Numbered from the stretch's first letter, positions 48,732-55,181 are shown. The stretch is DNA of 64,000 bases from an uncultured Gammaproteobacteria bacterium (GCA_964640635.1 CAZXFD010000004.1:9262-73261); one strand, 5' to 3'. A program made the numbers and translations. The notes: generated by a model not told the origin, from the letters alone.

Positions 48732-50435
48732 TCATCCGTGTTTTATAGAGCATTTTGACTTGTCACTATATGTTGTATGAAGAAGTTTGTGAGAGAGTTT
48801 GTTAGATGGAGAGCCAAGAAATTCTTTATATAATTTTTGTATTTGCGGATTATTATGTGATTGTCTAAATTTTAGAGATTTTTCGTGTTTATATATAGCA
48901 GAGATTCTTTTTTTGATTGTCTCACTTGTAGTTGTTTTTGGTTGTCCTCCTCCACCAATGCATCCAGATGGACATGCCATTATTTCAATAAAATCGTATT
49001 TATTTTTATTTATTTTGAGTTCCTCTAATACTGTTCGAGCATTTTTTAGGGTATGGATTATTCCTAGATGTAGAACTGTATTTCCTATTTTTACTTTTGT
49101 TGATTTTATGCCACTACTACCTCTAGCCTCAACAAATTCTATGTTTTTTAGCTCCTTGTTTGTAAGCAAGAAGTGCGCAGTTCTAATAGCAGACTCCATT
49201 ACTCCTCCACTTGCAGCAAATATAGCACCAGCACCAGTTGATTCTCCTAGTGGATTGTCGAATTTTTCGTCTTTTAGGTTTGCAAAATCAATTTTAAAAT
49301 TTGTAATTAATTTTGCACACTCTCTTATTGTTAAGACATAGTCAACATCTTTATTGTTGTTTACCCCCATTTCTTTTCTACAGGACTCATATTTTTTTGC
49401 AGTGCAGGGCATAATGCTTACGACAACTATATTTTTTGGGTCAATTCCCTTTGTTTTGGTAAAGTAACTTTTTATAATAGCTCCAAGCATTTGATGTGGA
49501 GATTTGCAAGTGGAAACGTTTTTTAGAAATTCTGGATAAAATGTTTCTACAAAATTTACCCAACCAGGACAACACGATGTAATAAGTGGAAGATTCTTTT
49601 TCCTCTTTAATCTCTCAACAAGCTCTGTTGCTTCTTCCATTATTGTAAGATCTGCACCAAAATCAGTATCAAAAACTTTTTTAAAACCAATTTTACGAAG
49701 TGCTCCCACCATTTTTCCTGTCACAATAGTTCCCGCTGGAAGACCAAATTCTTCGCCAAGAGAAACTCTTACGCTAGGCGCTGTTTGAACAACGACGTAT
49801 TTTGACTTATCTTTTAATATTTTTTTTATATCTTCTATGTTTTCTTTTTCTCTTATTGCATTTGTTGGGCAGACGAGTGTACATTGTCCACAACCCACAC
49901 AATCTGTGTATGCTAGTTTTTTATCTAATGCTTTTCCTACCCTTGTTGCATTTGCACGTTTGCTATAACTGATTGCATTTACTGTTTGAAGATTTCGACA
50001 TTTTTGTATACACCTTCCGCATTGTATACATTTTTCAAAATCCATTACTATATCATGACAAGAATTGTCTATTTCTTCACTTTTTCTTGGTTTGAATTTG
50101 AGTTCTTTGACATCTGGTAAGTCCTCTAATTTTAGCCATTTTTTGAATTCCTCTTCTTTTTCAAAATTACATCCAATAAGCTGAATTATAGATTTTCTGT
50201 ATTCCAAAATTTCTTTTGATGTTGTTACTATATTCATGCCATCTTTTATCTTATTGTTGCAACTTGTTGTGAATTTTCCATTGGCTAAAACAGCGCAAAT
50301 CCCACATCTTCCTTCTGGTATAAGATCTGGATGATAACAAAGGGTTGGAATTTTTATTCCGGATAATTTACAAGCCTCAAGAATTGTGAGCTCTTCTTTG
50401 ATATTGTATGTTTTGTTGTCTATAGTTATTTTCAT
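48732..50435 (-). CDS. [FeFe]-hydrogenase catalytic subunit HydA (N-terminal 2Fe-2S ferredoxin, 4Fe-4S clusters, H-cluster domain).
   Basis: H-cluster motif L1 is TSCCPGWV, L2 is MPCTAKKYE and L3 is EIMACPSGCIGGGGQP. The N-terminus has CYHPDL..EGRCGICAV (2Fe-2S) plus CIQCGRCIQKC and CVGCGQCTLVCP. Confidence 0.85.
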   Translation of the reverse strand: MKITIDNKTYNIKEELTILEACKLSGIKIPTLCYHPDLIPEGRCGICAVLANGKFTTSCNNKIKDGMNIVTTSKEILEYRKSIIQLIGCNFEKEEEFKKWLKLEDLPDVKELKFKPRKSEEIDNSCHDIVMDFEKCIQCGRCIQKCRNLQTVNAISYSKRANATRVGKALDKKLAYTDCVGCGQCTLVCPTNAIREKENIEDIKKILKDKSKYVVVQTAPSVRVSLGEEFGLPAGTIVTGKMVGALRKIGFKKVFDTDFGADLTIMEEATELVERLKRKKNLPLITSCCPGWVNFVETFYPEFLKNVSTCKSPHQMLGAIIKSYFTKTKGIDPKNIVVVSIMPCTAKKYESCRKEMGVNNNKDVDYVLTIRECAKLITNFKIDFANLKDEKFDNPLGESTGAGAIFAASGGVMESAIRTAHFLLTNKELKNIEFVEARGSSGIKSTKVKIGNTVLHLGIIHTLKNARTVLEELKINKNKYDFIEIMACPSGCIGGGGQPKTTTSETIKKRISAIYKHEKSLKFRQSHNNPQIQKLYKEFLGSPSNKLSHKLLHTTYSDKSKCSIKHG

Positions 50436-50454
50436 GGGTTGGTGATTAGCGAGA

Positions 50455-51531
50455 TTAGGAAACTAGGTTATTAAATTCATTTTTAAAATATTTAAGCGCT
50501 GTTTGAAGGTGTAGTGTTGATGATTCACCTAGCGCACATTGTGAGCCATATGGAATGTGTAATGACAAATTTTTTATTATTTCAAACTCTTCTTTTTTCC
50601 ACTTTCTTTTTAAAATTACTTGAAATAATTGTAGTAATCTAAAATTTCCCTCTCGACATGGGATACATTTTCCACAATTTTCTTCATTGAAAAATTGTAT
50701 AATAGACCTACATATATCTGGAATGCTTTTTGATTTGTCTACTACTATTATTCCTGTTTCAAAAAATCCACCCATTTTACTTATATTTTCATAAGAAAGA
50801 GAAATATTTTTGTCTGTTTTAATACATCCACCAGATGCGCCAAAAAATATTGCTTTTGAATTATATGATTCCACAAGAGACAAAAGTTCAAATAATTTTA
50901 TTCCTTCTTTTAATTCATAAACCCCAGGTTTTTTTACATCTCCAGATATTGAAAATAGTAATAAATCTTTATCAAAATTATTAGAAAATATTAGAGGAAT
51001 CCTTGCTATTGTTTCTAGATTATTTACAACTGTCTTTTTTCCGAATAGCCCAAATTCAGATGGATATGGGGGTTTTTTTCTTGACTCGGGACGAATTCCT
51101 TCTAAGCTATTTAAAATTGCCGTTTCTTCTCCACAAATATAGCTTCCAGCACCTACTATGACAGAAATATTTAATTTTGTTTTTTTGATAATCTTTTCAA
51201 GAGACTCTTTGTATTCTTTATATTCTTCTCGAAGATAAATATATGTAATTTTTGCGCTAGTTGCACGCATTGCGATAGCGATTCCTTCGATAATAAGTTC
51301 TGGATTTTTTTCTAATATAAATTTGTCTTTGAATCTTCCTGGTTCGCTTTCATCGCTATTTATTATTAGGTATTGTGCGGGATATGAAAGTTCCCATTTT
51401 TTTCCAGTTGAAAAATTTGCACCTCCCCTACCTTTAAGACCAGAGTCAATAACTTTTTTTATTATATCTTTTGGTTTTAAATTTTGTGCTATTTTCCAGG
51501 AATTGAAATTGTTTTTTGTAAGTATTTGCAT
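50455..51531 (-). CDS. NuoF-like flavoprotein subunit of the hydrogenase (HydB/HndC-like; NADH-binding, FMN, 4Fe-4S).
   Basis: GLKGRGGANFSTGKKW, SDESEPG, YICGEETAILNSLEG and CGKCIPCREG are present. The protein is shorter than canonical HydB and lacks extra ferredoxin domains. Confidence 0.75.
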   Translation of the reverse strand: MQILTKNNFNSWKIAQNLKPKDIIKKVIDSGLKGRGGANFSTGKKWELSYPAQYLIINSDESEPGRFKDKFILEKNPELIIEGIAIAMRATSAKITYIYLREEYKEYKESLEKIIKKTKLNISVIVGAGSYICGEETAILNSLEGIRPESRKKPPYPSEFGLFGKKTVVNNLETIARIPLIFSNNFDKDLLLFSISGDVKKPGVYELKEGIKLFELLSLVESYNSKAIFFGASGGCIKTDKNISLSYENISKMGGFFETGIIVVDKSKSIPDICRSIIQFFNEENCGKCIPCREGNFRLLQLFQVILKRKWKKEEFEIIKNLSLHIPYGSQCALGESSTLHLQTALKYFKNEFNNLVS

Positions 51532-51944
51532 TATATTAAGCCTTCTATTTTTAATATATATTTTATTTTTTCCTCTGTAATATTTGTATAAACAGATTGG
51601 TTGATGCTCATAATAGGGCCTTTGTCACACATTCCAATACACTGACACGTTTCAAGTGAGACAAGACTGTTTGATTCCCCTATTTTTATATTCAATAGAT
51701 TGGAAATAAGATTAAGTAATTTTTCATTTTTTTTGGAGTGACATGTAGGGCTTTGACAGAGTTTGATAATTTTTTTTGAAGGTTTTTCTAAATTAAAATT
51801 TGCATAAAAAGAAACAGTGTCATAAATTTCTGCTGGGGATTTTTGAAATTCTTTTGCAAGCATATTTATGTCAGATTCTTTTATGTAAGAGGTTCTGTTT
51901 TGAATTTCTAGTAGTCTCTCTAGTAGTAATTTTTTATTTTCCAT
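51531..51944 (-). CDS. NuoE-like thioredoxin-fold [2Fe-2S] subunit of the hydrogenase (HydC/HndA-like).
   Basis: The Cys pattern is CQSPTCHS...CQCIGMCDKGP. The start overlaps the hydB stop. Confidence 0.7.
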   Translation of the reverse strand: MENKKLLLERLLEIQNRTSYIKESDINMLAKEFQKSPAEIYDTVSFYANFNLEKPSKKIIKLCQSPTCHSKKNEKLLNLISNLLNIKIGESNSLVSLETCQCIGMCDKGPIMSINQSVYTNITEEKIKYILKIEGLI

Positions 51945-52900: not shown

Positions 52901-53038
52901 ATGAGTGAGCTCACGGAAGCAATTGAAAAATTGGCAAAGATTATAGTTAATGATCCAACAATTGCAGAAGATGATCTTAACCAGATTTTGATTGATCTTG
53001 TAAAAAAAGTAAGAGAGATCAAGCAATCCCAATCGTAA
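52901..53038 (+). CDS. 45-aa acidic helical peptide (MSELTEAIEKLAKIIVNDPTIAEDDLNQILIDLVKKVREIKQSQS). It is absent from the ORF track because it is shorter than 60 aa.
   Basis: An identical AGGGAGGAAT SD sits upstream. A hairpin gatcacaagagtgatc follows at the stop, then the terminator at 53065-53102. Confidence 0.45.
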   Translation: MSELTEAIEKLAKIIVNDPTIAEDDLNQILIDLVKKVREIKQSQS

Positions 53039-53064
53039 GATCACAAGAGTGATCGAGTTATGTA

Positions 53065-53102
53065 GTGGTGATACGCATTGAGTATTGCCACTTTTTATTT
53101 TT
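53065..53102 (+). terminator. Rho-independent terminator of the small-ORF unit.
   Basis: gtggtgatac gcattga gtattgccac (10 bp including 2 G-U pairs) followed by tttttattttt. Confidence 0.6.
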
Positions 53103-53124
53103 ATAAAAGAACATCCATTTAATT

Positions 53125-53234
53125 CTCGTCGACACTCGGATTAGTTTAGGCACCGCCTCGCGGTCTCGCTTGTTAGCTCGACATCGCTCTGGCGTTCTCA
53201 TCTCGACGCAACGCAAGCAGTTGCGTTGCTCCCT
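53125..53234. ncRNA. GC-rich (roughly 55-60%) structured island, a candidate small RNA of unknown class.
   Basis: Stable hairpins gcaacgcaa-gcag-ttgcgttgc (53208-53229) and accgc-ctc-gcggt (53152-53164), plus three CTCGAC repeats, in an otherwise under-30% GC context. It lies between a terminator and tRNA-Ser. Confidence 0.3.
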
Positions 53235-53300
53235 AATATATATTTTATATAATTTTCATAGCAAATAAAAAATATCCATTTTTAGTAGATATTCTTAGTG

Positions 53301-53390
53301 TGGCGGAGAGGGCGAGATTCGAACTCGCGAACCACTTGCATGGTTAACAGTTTTCAAGACTGTCGCATTCAACCACTCTGCCACCTCTCC
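53301..53390 (-). tRNA. tRNA-Ser (anticodon TGA), 90 nt, long variable arm, CCA encoded.
   Basis: Acceptor GGAGAGG/CCTCTCC, discriminator G, anticodon stem ACAGT/ACTGT with loop CTTGAAA, T-loop GTTCGAATC. Confidence 0.85.
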
Positions 53391-55094: not shown

Positions 55095-55181
55095 TTCGAT
55101 TCTCCCTCGTTAACTCGGGGTCACTCATGGTCTTTGACCGAGCTTATTAAATATTTTAGAATAAACGCTTGGTTAAGTTAT

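Follow-up and report, generated by a model that had tools for sequence, protein, structure and literature searches.

A structured RNA family tied to tRNA genes of Patescibacteria

The subject of this analysis is a GC-rich island at positions 53125–53234 of a 64,000-nucleotide (nt) stretch of bacterial DNA (GCA_964640635.1, CAZXFD010000004.1:9262-73261; hereafter the window), which lies next to a gene for the transfer RNA (tRNA) tRNA-Ser(UGA). The island is, in our judgment, probably the gene, or the remnant of the gene, of a structured non-coding RNA (ncRNA) encoded on the minus strand, a processed tRNA mimic from a family that is found across the Patescibacteria and has no entry in Rfam 15. 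The assignment of the island to this family is close to certain. The mechanism that we attach to it, a processed tRNA-mimic RNA that would spread by recombination at the T-loop, is put forward tentatively, as a proposal that could well prove wrong.

The composition of the island agrees with the initial annotation, which was made from the sequence alone and described a stretch of about 55–60% GC in a genome of less than 30% GC: 53125–53234 has 58% GC, and the window as a whole 29.7%. The most GC-rich 80-nt stretch of all 64 kb (GC fraction 0.61) lies inside the island, and only three tRNA genes approach it. The 9-base-pair (bp) hairpin reported there, GCAACGCAA/GCAG/TTGCGTTGC at 53208–53229, is exact and unique in the window, and none of 100 shuffles produced a match to it, even with three mismatches permitted. 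Two other claims required revision. What had been taken for three CTCGAC repeats are two exact copies (53177 and 53202) and one GTCGAC (53129); five CTCGAC copies occur in the whole window, as expected by chance, so that the hexamer is not enriched, and the hexamers are present in the island because the CGAG (tandem G·A) motif recurs in the RNA family. The second hairpin, accgc-ctc-gcggt, is probably not native, as its bases make up the 3′ strand of a long helix (P2) in the family structure, where they pair with CGCC and GCG 35–45 nt away.

The view that the island is non-coding was upheld: its open reading frames (ORFs) span only 32–52 amino acids (aa), start inside the island and lack homologues among real proteins, and its plus-frame pseudo-ORF, searched as a protein, returned no match. 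The island is separated by 67 nt from tRNA-Ser(UGA) (53301–53390, minus strand; ARAGORN and the Rfam tRNA model), beyond which tRNA-Gln and tRNA-Cys are found farther along the window (ARAGORN), and an independent assembly (L008; L numbers denote loci) spans the region with identical sequence. Searches by hairpin, by GC content and with R1, the covariance model that we built for the family and used with cmsearch, detected no other copies of the island within the 64-kb window.

Relatives of the island were recognized by three routes. A 24-mer of the island matched one GTDB genome, Candidatus Komeilibacteria bacterium S5_K13, twice: beside tRNA-Ser(UGA) in L013, which is syntenic with the window, and beside tRNA-Asp in L012. 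At both loci the island abuts a partial copy of the neighboring tRNA that starts exactly at T-loop position C56 and continues through CCA and beyond; this copy repeats, in direct orientation, the 3′ end of the complete upstream tRNA. The minus-frame pseudo-ORF, compared with a representative library of 1.8 billion proteins, gave a single match, a spurious "protein" (P0241) that led to L023, a "Patescibacteria group" metagenome-assembled genome (MAG) in which a diverged copy follows tRNA-Ser(UGA) with the layout unchanged. Finally, a 21-nt core motif common to all copies, GATGAGAACGCCNGAGCGATG, was located at 38 loci in JGI metagenomes, ∼33 of which are true members, and its exact form is also present at the two S5_K13 loci and in one NCBI Patescibacteria MAG. 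According to the source names of neighboring proteins, the members belong to Komeilibacteria, Ryanbacteria, Magasanikbacteria, a Falkowbacteria-like MAG and unclassified Patescibacteria. The 24-mer had no matches in IMG/VR, and neither did the apical 20-mer GTCTCGCTTGTTAGCTCGAC in the JGI metagenomes, because the apical helix is hypervariable. The structured small RNA of no known class that the initial annotation proposed is thus supported by ∼35 relatives that share one covarying secondary structure.

It is extremely improbable that the island is instead a divergent housekeeping RNA (signal recognition particle (SRP) RNA, RNase P RNA, transfer-messenger RNA (tmRNA), 6S or 5S RNA) or a chance cluster of GC-rich hairpins. 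Both ideas draw on nothing but the tRNA-adjacent position and the GC richness, whereas Rfam 15, searched on both strands, has no match on the island at gathering thresholds or at E ≤ 10, and assigns no family to five complete members at E ≤ 1; overall it returns only tRNAs and sub-threshold noise, and at gathering thresholds the 64 kb contain tRNAs only. ARAGORN finds no tmRNA, in line with the earlier failure to recognize SRP RNA, RNase P RNA or tmRNA by eye. Furthermore, several copies per genome with tRNA-specific parts do not suit a housekeeping RNA, and a chance cluster is excluded by the covariation described below.

Secondary structure and covariation

Complete members have a common architecture. 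The 5′ end often carries a 7-nt mimic of the acceptor 5′ strand of the neighboring tRNA, followed by 2 nt, a 9-bp hairpin (H1) and a further 1–2 nt; next comes a copy of the 5′ strand of the neighbor's T stem, ending at the universal G53, and then an invariant AUGAGAA. The long helix P2 consists of CGCC/GGCG, a GGA/GA internal loop, GCG/CGC, an AU bulge and a variable helix, and is joined by GU to P3, which consists of GGCU/AGCC, a bulged A, GAC/GUC and a second variable helix. The 3′ end is formed by C56-G57-A58-A59-U60, the T-stem 3′ strand, the acceptor 3′ strand, the discriminator and sometimes CCA. The 3′ tRNA copy closes the structure as P1 and the acceptor stem, and the strands of the junction are AUGAGAA, GU and CGAAU. 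The predicted RNA is therefore the "top half" of a tRNA, an acceptor and a T stem without D or anticodon arms, whose T-loop is opened by a conserved three-way junction. It is not a canonical tRNA: ARAGORN and the Rfam tRNA model report only the neighboring tRNAs.

Folding of the single sequence yields −38.8 kcal/mol (z = −2.2) for the minus strand and −33.8 kcal/mol (z = −1.7) for the plus strand, which is not significant alone; the evidence for structure is the covariation among relatives. In an alignment of 26 distinct members (A5), with the structure written as five helices, 89.6% of the cells form standard pairs, compared with 70.9% for shuffled partners and 33–43% for partners slid by one to three columns. 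Both sides have changed in 33 of the 46 pairs (shuffled mean 23.9). The observed covariation score of 0.479 was reached by none of 500 shuffles, the mean of which is 0.151. Support extends over the individual helices: all nine pairs of H1 show compensatory change (94% of cells pair), as do 14 of 16 pairs in P3 and 7 of 11 in the upper, apical part of P2, the basal pairs of P2 being invariant in the family. The AUGAGAA columns of the junction are invariant in all 26 sequences. The H1 loop is CUGC in 14/25 members and the P3 loop GGAA in 11/25.

The same alignment identifies the strand. Non-Watson-Crick cells are distributed asymmetrically, with 25 G·U against 10 A·C and 81 G·A or A·G against 7 C·U or U·C, and the tandem G·A positions in P2 and P3 are exchanged for A-U or G-C pairs in other members. 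Together with the GGAA loops, these counts assign the RNA to the tRNA-sense strand, the minus strand of the window. The 9-bp hairpin, with the loop CUGC, is consequently a 5′ element and not a terminator-like hairpin at the 3′ end. A plus-strand RNA bearing a primer-binding-site-like complement of the tRNA 3′ end was considered and dropped, as the strand signatures contradict it; a kissing interaction of the H1 and P2 loops was dropped because, by eye, it is inconsistent across members.

Two deviations at the junction were observed in individual members. In the second of the tandem copies in L053 (379–519, minus strand) the otherwise invariant AUGAGAA is replaced by the T-loop-like AUUCGAA, a hint that this strand of the junction originated as the 5′ portion of a T-loop. 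In L031, L038, L053 and L055 the copied T-loop position 56 is an A, although the neighboring tRNA has the universal C56.

Relation to the neighboring tRNA

The initial annotation was right that the island adjoins a tRNA gene, but regarded the position as a slot in which structured RNAs commonly reside; the association is no such coincidence, as the link to a tRNA is a defining trait of the family. A tRNA lies directly upstream on the same strand at nearly every member locus, the gap to the element being −5 to +66 nt in 22 of 24 loci and 208–253 nt in the other two. The partners are Ser, Leu, Ala, Lys, Gln, Asp, Val and Gly tRNAs, with Ser over-represented (∼12 of ∼29 distinct loci). Members are often found within tRNA operons, about a dozen nt from the next tRNA, as in the orders Ala-element-Phe-Pro (L059) and Ser-element-Ser (L023).

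The tRNA-like parts of each element match its own neighbor. Identity to the element's own tRNA amounts to 76/88 positions for T-stem positions 50–53 (shuffled mean 53.6, maximum 63), 105/110 for the T-stem 3′ strand (shuffled mean 63.7) and 138/154 for the acceptor 3′ strand (shuffled mean 67.6). Between the acceptor 5′ mimic and the acceptor 3′ strand, 104/175 positions pair, compared with 78 ± 5.6 after shuffling. The exact repeat has a fixed start at C56 and usually runs for 19–23 nt to the tRNA 3′ end, extending to 58–101 nt, including the terminator, at some loci. This copying of the acceptor and T stems points to mimicry of the neighboring tRNA as a candidate role.

The element could alternatively act in cis as an accessory of the upstream tRNA gene, in 3′ maturation, stability or termination, for instance through mimic strands that pair alternatively with the 3′ half of the tRNA. 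A same-strand tRNA always immediately precedes the element, often at 0–25 nt; the mimic strands are also complementary to the 3′ half of the upstream tRNA itself; and a conserved linker, GAACGAAGUGA, separates the tRNA 3′ end from the acceptor mimic. Yet only one to a few of the ∼40 tRNA genes per genome carry the element, and the orthologous tRNAs of close relatives do without it; moreover, a terminator hairpin stands between tRNA and element at several loci, and tandem second copies are not adjacent to a tRNA. We regard a cis-acting role as quite improbable.

The linker, (A)AYGAACGAAGUGARY, follows the tRNA in about half of the loci and precedes the 7-nt acceptor mimic (examples between tRNA 3′ end and element are L023 5001–5022, L038, L040, L043, L045, L053 and L057). 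It may form the loop of a hairpin in which the acceptor 3′ strand of the tRNA pairs with the acceptor mimic of the element. The same motif is also found as the loop of an unrelated CCCCG/CGGGG hairpin (L045 4000–4030).

Spread among tRNA genes

Several observations point to spread of the element to different tRNA genes within a lineage. The Ser and Asp copies of S5_K13 have an identical P2 apex, which is otherwise hypervariable, and their H1 hairpins differ by two compensatory pairs, while their T-stem mimics, CGAG (Ser) and AGGG (Asp), differ exactly as their tRNAs do. One P3 variant is common to elements beside Lys, Ala(GGC), Val and Ala(UGC) tRNAs. Tandem copies occur in L053 and L040 and 3′-truncated relics in L033 and the window, and L012 contains a scar just upstream of the element, in which a piece of tRNA-Asp (positions 34–66) is fused to a terminator of the tRNA-Ser-locus type. 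From the shared helices, tandem copies, relics, scars and fixed C56 start we infer duplication to new tRNA genes at the DNA level.

The main competing explanation is a selfish mobile element that has the T-loop of tRNA genes (between positions 55 and 56) as its homing site and an RNA structure devoted to moving the element itself, either as a small ribozyme or retro-element RNA with the mimics as target guides or as a non-autonomous element mobilized in trans; the duplicated tRNA 3′ part would leave the invaded tRNA gene intact. The junction lies exactly at C56 for at least nine tRNA identities, and presence varies between close relatives: genomes retrieved through homologues of L20 and DedA have the same tRNA genes, with the element absent at both tRNA loci ("empty sites"). 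The spread to new tRNAs, tandem copies, truncated relics and chimeric tRNA scars are also those of a mobile element, as is a repeat that has one fixed end and varies in length from 18 to ∼100 nt, and the three-way junction with its purine-rich invariant strands has a topology like that of small self-cleaving ribozymes. Against this stand the low copy number, about one match per 150–380 kb contig, and the lack of any reverse transcriptase, transposase, integrase or TnpB recurring nearby (at the Komeilibacteria loci, Pfam identifies no integrase or transposase). Scans of IMG/VR, INPHARED phages and PLSDB plasmids yielded no copies, and no Rfam model of a known ribozyme matches. In addition, the elements of L051/L060 and L059, which occupy the same tRNA-operon position in related genomes, differ in one helix after another, a pattern suggestive of prolonged vertical descent. 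On balance, a selfish element appears rather unlikely.

Two specific candidates of this kind were rejected. An omega RNA of IS200/IS605 TnpB or IscB, with scaffold and guide, is incompatible with the lack of a recurrent adjacent nuclease gene and of any match to the IS605-orfB and HEARO Rfam models, and a TnpB-type guide RNA is further contradicted by the presence, beside the would-be guide, of its target in intact form, the full tRNA gene. The hammerhead and other known self-cleaving ribozymes were dismissed because the conserved core is unmatched and no Rfam ribozyme model matches.

A further possibility is that the locus is a DNA-level scar (attL/attR plus flank) left by a past integrative element in the tRNA gene, with no RNA function. 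A direct repeat of a tRNA 3′ end starting in the T-loop is the classic signature of an integrase, and the tRNA loci of these genomes are full of tRNA fragments. A scar would nevertheless not account for strong RNA covariation on one strand with G·U, tandem G·A and GNRA signatures, for a ∼95-nt core preserved in five named Patescibacteria lineages, or for a T-stem 5′ mimic beyond the core that covaries with the tRNA copy; nor does Pfam detect an integrase or cargo between or beside the repeats, as an att site would lead one to expect. This explanation is very improbable.

The element-bearing loci also contain other tRNA-derived debris. Copies of the first 11–24 nt of the tRNA, each followed by a short GC hairpin, lie upstream of the full tRNA at 6 of 24 element-bearing loci and at two element-free loci, with a doubtful seventh at L044 (one mismatch, 381 nt upstream). 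Examples are L013 148–175, L012 2303–2360, L016 4373–4400 and L023 4851–4890, as well as L030, L051 and L053 (60–150 nt upstream of the tRNA) and L022 (358 nt upstream); typical hairpins are UCCGCC-N3/4-GGCGGA, UCCCGC...GCGGGA and CCCGUU...AACGGG. In L022 the hairpin lies within an otherwise continuing tRNA-Ser-like sequence, much as if a short segment had been inserted into the D arm. A 37-nt GC-rich insertion polymorphism (CTCTCGACTTTGCTCGAGGTCTACGCTTCGCTACGAC) in a 5′ tRNA-Asp fragment (L018 4381–4417 compared with L012 2321) separates two strains whose L20 proteins are 99% identical, and the first bases of the insertion resemble the 3′ end of the element on the opposite strand (CCTTCGACTT). 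Dense mosaics of tRNA fragments, GC hairpins and chimeric pieces surround the elements at L045 3612–3860 and 4010–4130 and at L012 2536–2745 and 2890–3000; one of them is a tRNA-Ser-like copy with a CCCCGC...GCGGGG hairpin between T stem and acceptor strand.

The copy in the window

The element in the window extends over 53095–53233 on the minus strand, the strand of tRNA-Ser, and so runs beyond the boundaries of the island as initially drawn. It contains the 21-nt core and scores 86.9 bits with R1 (E ∼1e-20 to 1e-23), compared with 105–147 bits for complete members; nothing else in the 64 kb matches.

Its 5′ part is intact. After GGGA at 53230–53233 comes H1, GCAACGCAA-CUGC-UUGCGUUGC, at 53208–53229, which has the 9 bp, 4-nt loop and 1–2 nt spacing before the T-stem mimic that typify the family. 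The segment 53195–53207 comprises the linker GU, the T-stem 5′-strand mimic CGAG and the invariant AUGAG-AA junction; the CGAG at 53202–53205 is identical to positions 50–53 of tRNA-Ser, downstream of which the element lies on the same strand, as in other members. The invariant junction and P2 base, GAUGAGAACGCC(R)GAGCGAUG ... CCGCGAGGCGGUG, are present as an exact motif at 53181–53201. P2 (53154–53194) is built from CGCC/GGCG, an AGA/GA internal loop, GCG/CGC, an AU bulge and GUC-GA-GCU-AACA-AGC-GA-GAC.

The 3′ part is degenerate. The interval 53112–53153 holds the J2/3 strand (GU) and a P3 that retains its apical part; the closing pairs GGCU/AGCC and GAC/GUC are broken, with GCCUAAAC...AAAUGGAUG in place of the family's GGCUAGAC...AGUCGAAGCC (non-standard pairs flagged by cmsearch), so that a complete P3 is lacking. 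The tRNA 3′ copy from C56 to the discriminator, which provides P1 and the acceptor stem, is missing altogether. At its site (53095–53120) remains the 3′ half of a terminator of the tRNA-Ser type (AUGGAUGUUCUUUUAU), a 15-nt direct-repeat remnant of 53267–53281, whereas the same place in L013 holds GUCGAAGG, tRNA-Ser C56-CCA and the terminator. Relative to L013, ∼56 nt have apparently been deleted, namely GUCGAAGG, tRNA-Ser C56-CCA and the first half of the terminator hairpin. As the closing helices of P3 and the tRNA 3′ copy are missing, the window copy was filed as a truncated member, and it may no longer be functional.

The conservation of this truncated copy is high: from H1 to the start of P3 it differs from its Komeilibacteria S5_K13 orthologue at 2 of 95 positions, while 24% of four-fold sites (73/305, three flanking genes) differ between the two genomes. 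A recent deletion, conversion by a second, intact copy or a function of the 5′ two-thirds in its own right are possible reasons; the copy would be a relic in decay, its sequence kept close to that of a second copy by gene conversion, or else a shorter form that still functions. Logan contigs with the flanking genes break inside the island in at least three samples, those from the left ending at 53186 and those from the right starting at 53160. Given the use of 31-mers, these breaks suggest that the 33-mer 53157–53189, in P2, has a second context in those samples, which could come from another copy within the genome or from a closely related organism.

A promoter-like TTGCTA-18-TATATT (53235–53264, minus strand), a match to consensus only, immediately precedes the element, and an AT-rich hairpin with a U-run, read by eye, follows tRNA-Ser at ∼53266–53298.

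Comparison with known systems

One known RNA of comparable form is tmRNA (SsrA), which assembles an acceptor and a T stem from its two ends, lacks an anticodon arm, contains a large insert and is matured by tRNA enzymes. The family likewise forms its acceptor and T stems from both ends, without an anticodon arm and around a large non-tRNA insert. tmRNA has, in addition, an intact T-loop, a D-loop analogue, alanine identity, a reading frame for the tag and pseudoknots, is ∼350 nt long and occurs in a single copy. Unlike it, the family has its insert within the T-loop, copies its stems from the adjacent tRNA, contains no reading frame and is seen by neither ARAGORN nor Rfam. The resemblance to att-site repeats of integrases that target the T-loop lies in a repeat of the tRNA 3′ part that starts in the T-loop, downstream of an intact tRNA; the family differs in the ∼125 nt between its repeats, in the absence of integrase and cargo, and in that the interval is a covarying RNA that pairs with the repeat.

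Partial imitation of tRNA, with use of tRNA-processing or tRNA-binding factors, is also known from viral 3′ tRNA-like structures and mascRNA. These RNAs and the YrlA module imitate the elbow (T-loop/D-loop) or the whole L-shape with fixed sequences. Bacterial Y RNAs (YrlA) similarly combine partial tRNA imitation with the use of tRNA-processing and tRNA-binding factors (PMC4201824). The family shares partial imitation with all of them but dispenses with the T-loop and borrows its stems from the tRNA beside it, and neighbor clustering and a viral scan revealed no rsr/Ro gene or viral context at its loci.

With tRNA-derived short interspersed nuclear elements (SINEs) and the split or intron-bearing tRNA genes of archaea the family has in common tRNA-derived sequence joined to a conserved non-tRNA core, defined positions of interruption, and spread. 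Those systems belong to eukaryotes and archaea and need the reverse transcriptase of a long interspersed nuclear element (LINE) or a splicing endonuclease; the family, in contrast, is tied to a matching intact tRNA next to it, and no bulge-helix-bulge motif was seen. Lastly, the topology, and only the topology, may be likened to that of a type I hammerhead: a three-way junction with a 7-nt purine-rich strand between helices 1 and 2 (AUGAGAA compared with CUGAUGA), in which the junction to downstream sequence falls at the boundary of helices 3 and 1. The family lacks the core C3, G8 and G12-A13-A14 of the hammerhead, and no Rfam hammerhead model matches it.

Each of the two kinds, the tRNA mimic and the tRNA 3′-end repeat, is known separately; their combination is not in Rfam 15 and appears to be new. 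Literature searches by topic and by sequence string returned no description of the family, although the search was incomplete and an earlier description is possible.

Proposed mechanism and its weaknesses

In the mechanism that we propose, the element would be transcribed together with the tRNA or right after it, and the RNA would be excised by tRNA-maturation enzymes, as suggested by its tRNA-like ends and its place in the tRNA slot of tRNA operons. It would then act as a tRNA mimic, directed at some factor that reads the acceptor and T stem, with the invariant junction and internal loops possibly binding a conserved partner or catalyzing a reaction. New copies within a lineage could arise when the element is duplicated at other tRNA genes, with the universally conserved T-loop box as the site of recombination or template switching, after which the T-stem mimic would be adjusted by compensatory change under selection for P1 pairing.

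A number of points weigh against this proposal. Processing by RNase P and RNase Z, and mimicry itself, are deduced from shape and position, and the patchy distribution, the tandem copies and the truncated relics (window, L033) would fit a selfish element equally. As all relatives were gathered via one exact 21-mer, the search itself accounts for part of the apparent invariance of this segment. U37 of AUGAG is invariant although T-loop position 59 varies (five mismatches), which makes the extended P1 pairing uncertain. The window copy is unable to form P1 or the base of P3 and is nonetheless highly conserved, so that a mimic accommodates it only by invoking gene conversion or a very recent deletion. 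The promoter- and terminator-like sites are weak, and promoter-like sites are no more frequent than in shuffles. No neighboring protein family recurs; the only recurring clusters are spurious ORFs across the element.

Two bolder variants, taken together, are unlikely. The element may be a small ribozyme or retro-element tied to the T-loop that, by means of its two mimic (guide) segments, recognizes the T-stem and acceptor 3′ strands in a tRNA gene or transcript and inserts at 55/56, or it may be an anticodon-less mimic that assumes the acceptor identity of its neighbor. The latter suits the excess of Ser, Leu and Ala partners, because the synthetases for these amino acids ignore the anticodon, and, if true, would allow aminoacylation for a non-ribosomal purpose or titration of a tRNA-directed enzyme or toxin.

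Other features of the window and related genomes

At 55095–55150 of the window, right after the CCA of tRNA-Gln, lies a GC-rich insert of ∼55 nt (TTCGATTCTCCCTCGTTAACTCGGGGTCACTCATGGTCTTTGACCGAGC), which R1 does not match and which the syntenic spacer in Komeilibacteria S5_K13 (L013 3790–3820) lacks; it may be another small tRNA-linked insert. A strong GGGAGG ribosome-binding site serves a 45-aa ORF (52901–53038, plus strand), beyond which lies a clean intrinsic terminator (53064–53092); the ORF has no Pfam match on record and was found only in this organism's own assemblies. At 48732–51944 (minus strand), Pfam identifies a HydABC-type set of three genes, encoding an [FeFe]-hydrogenase large subunit and NuoF-like and NuoE-like proteins, which is thus carried by a small, 30% GC Patescibacteria genome. 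In genomes related to that of the window, gene-free gaps of 0.8–1.5 kb separate smpB and infC (L014 2462–3302, L016 2088–3298, L018 1717–3257). A divergent ssrA is expected beside smpB, and ARAGORN reported no tmRNA in these gaps.

Significance

Patescibacteria, also known as the candidate phyla radiation (CPR), account for much of bacterial diversity; their genomes are tiny, nearly all of these bacteria are uncultured and, to our knowledge, very few of their ncRNAs have been described. The family adds a compact RNA of ∼140 nt that is missing from Rfam 15 and that, across at least five named CPR lineages, shows strong conservation and covariation. Its predicted design is unusual, with the top half of a tRNA, a conserved three-way junction in place of the T-loop and stems copied from the adjacent tRNA, and it raises the questions of whether such an RNA is processed or charged like a tRNA, whether the junction is catalytic and how an element moves while acquiring tRNA sequence. 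The elements also account for "partial tRNA" calls, GC-rich islands and assembly breaks beside tRNA genes in CPR genomes, the annotation of which a covariance model of the family would improve.

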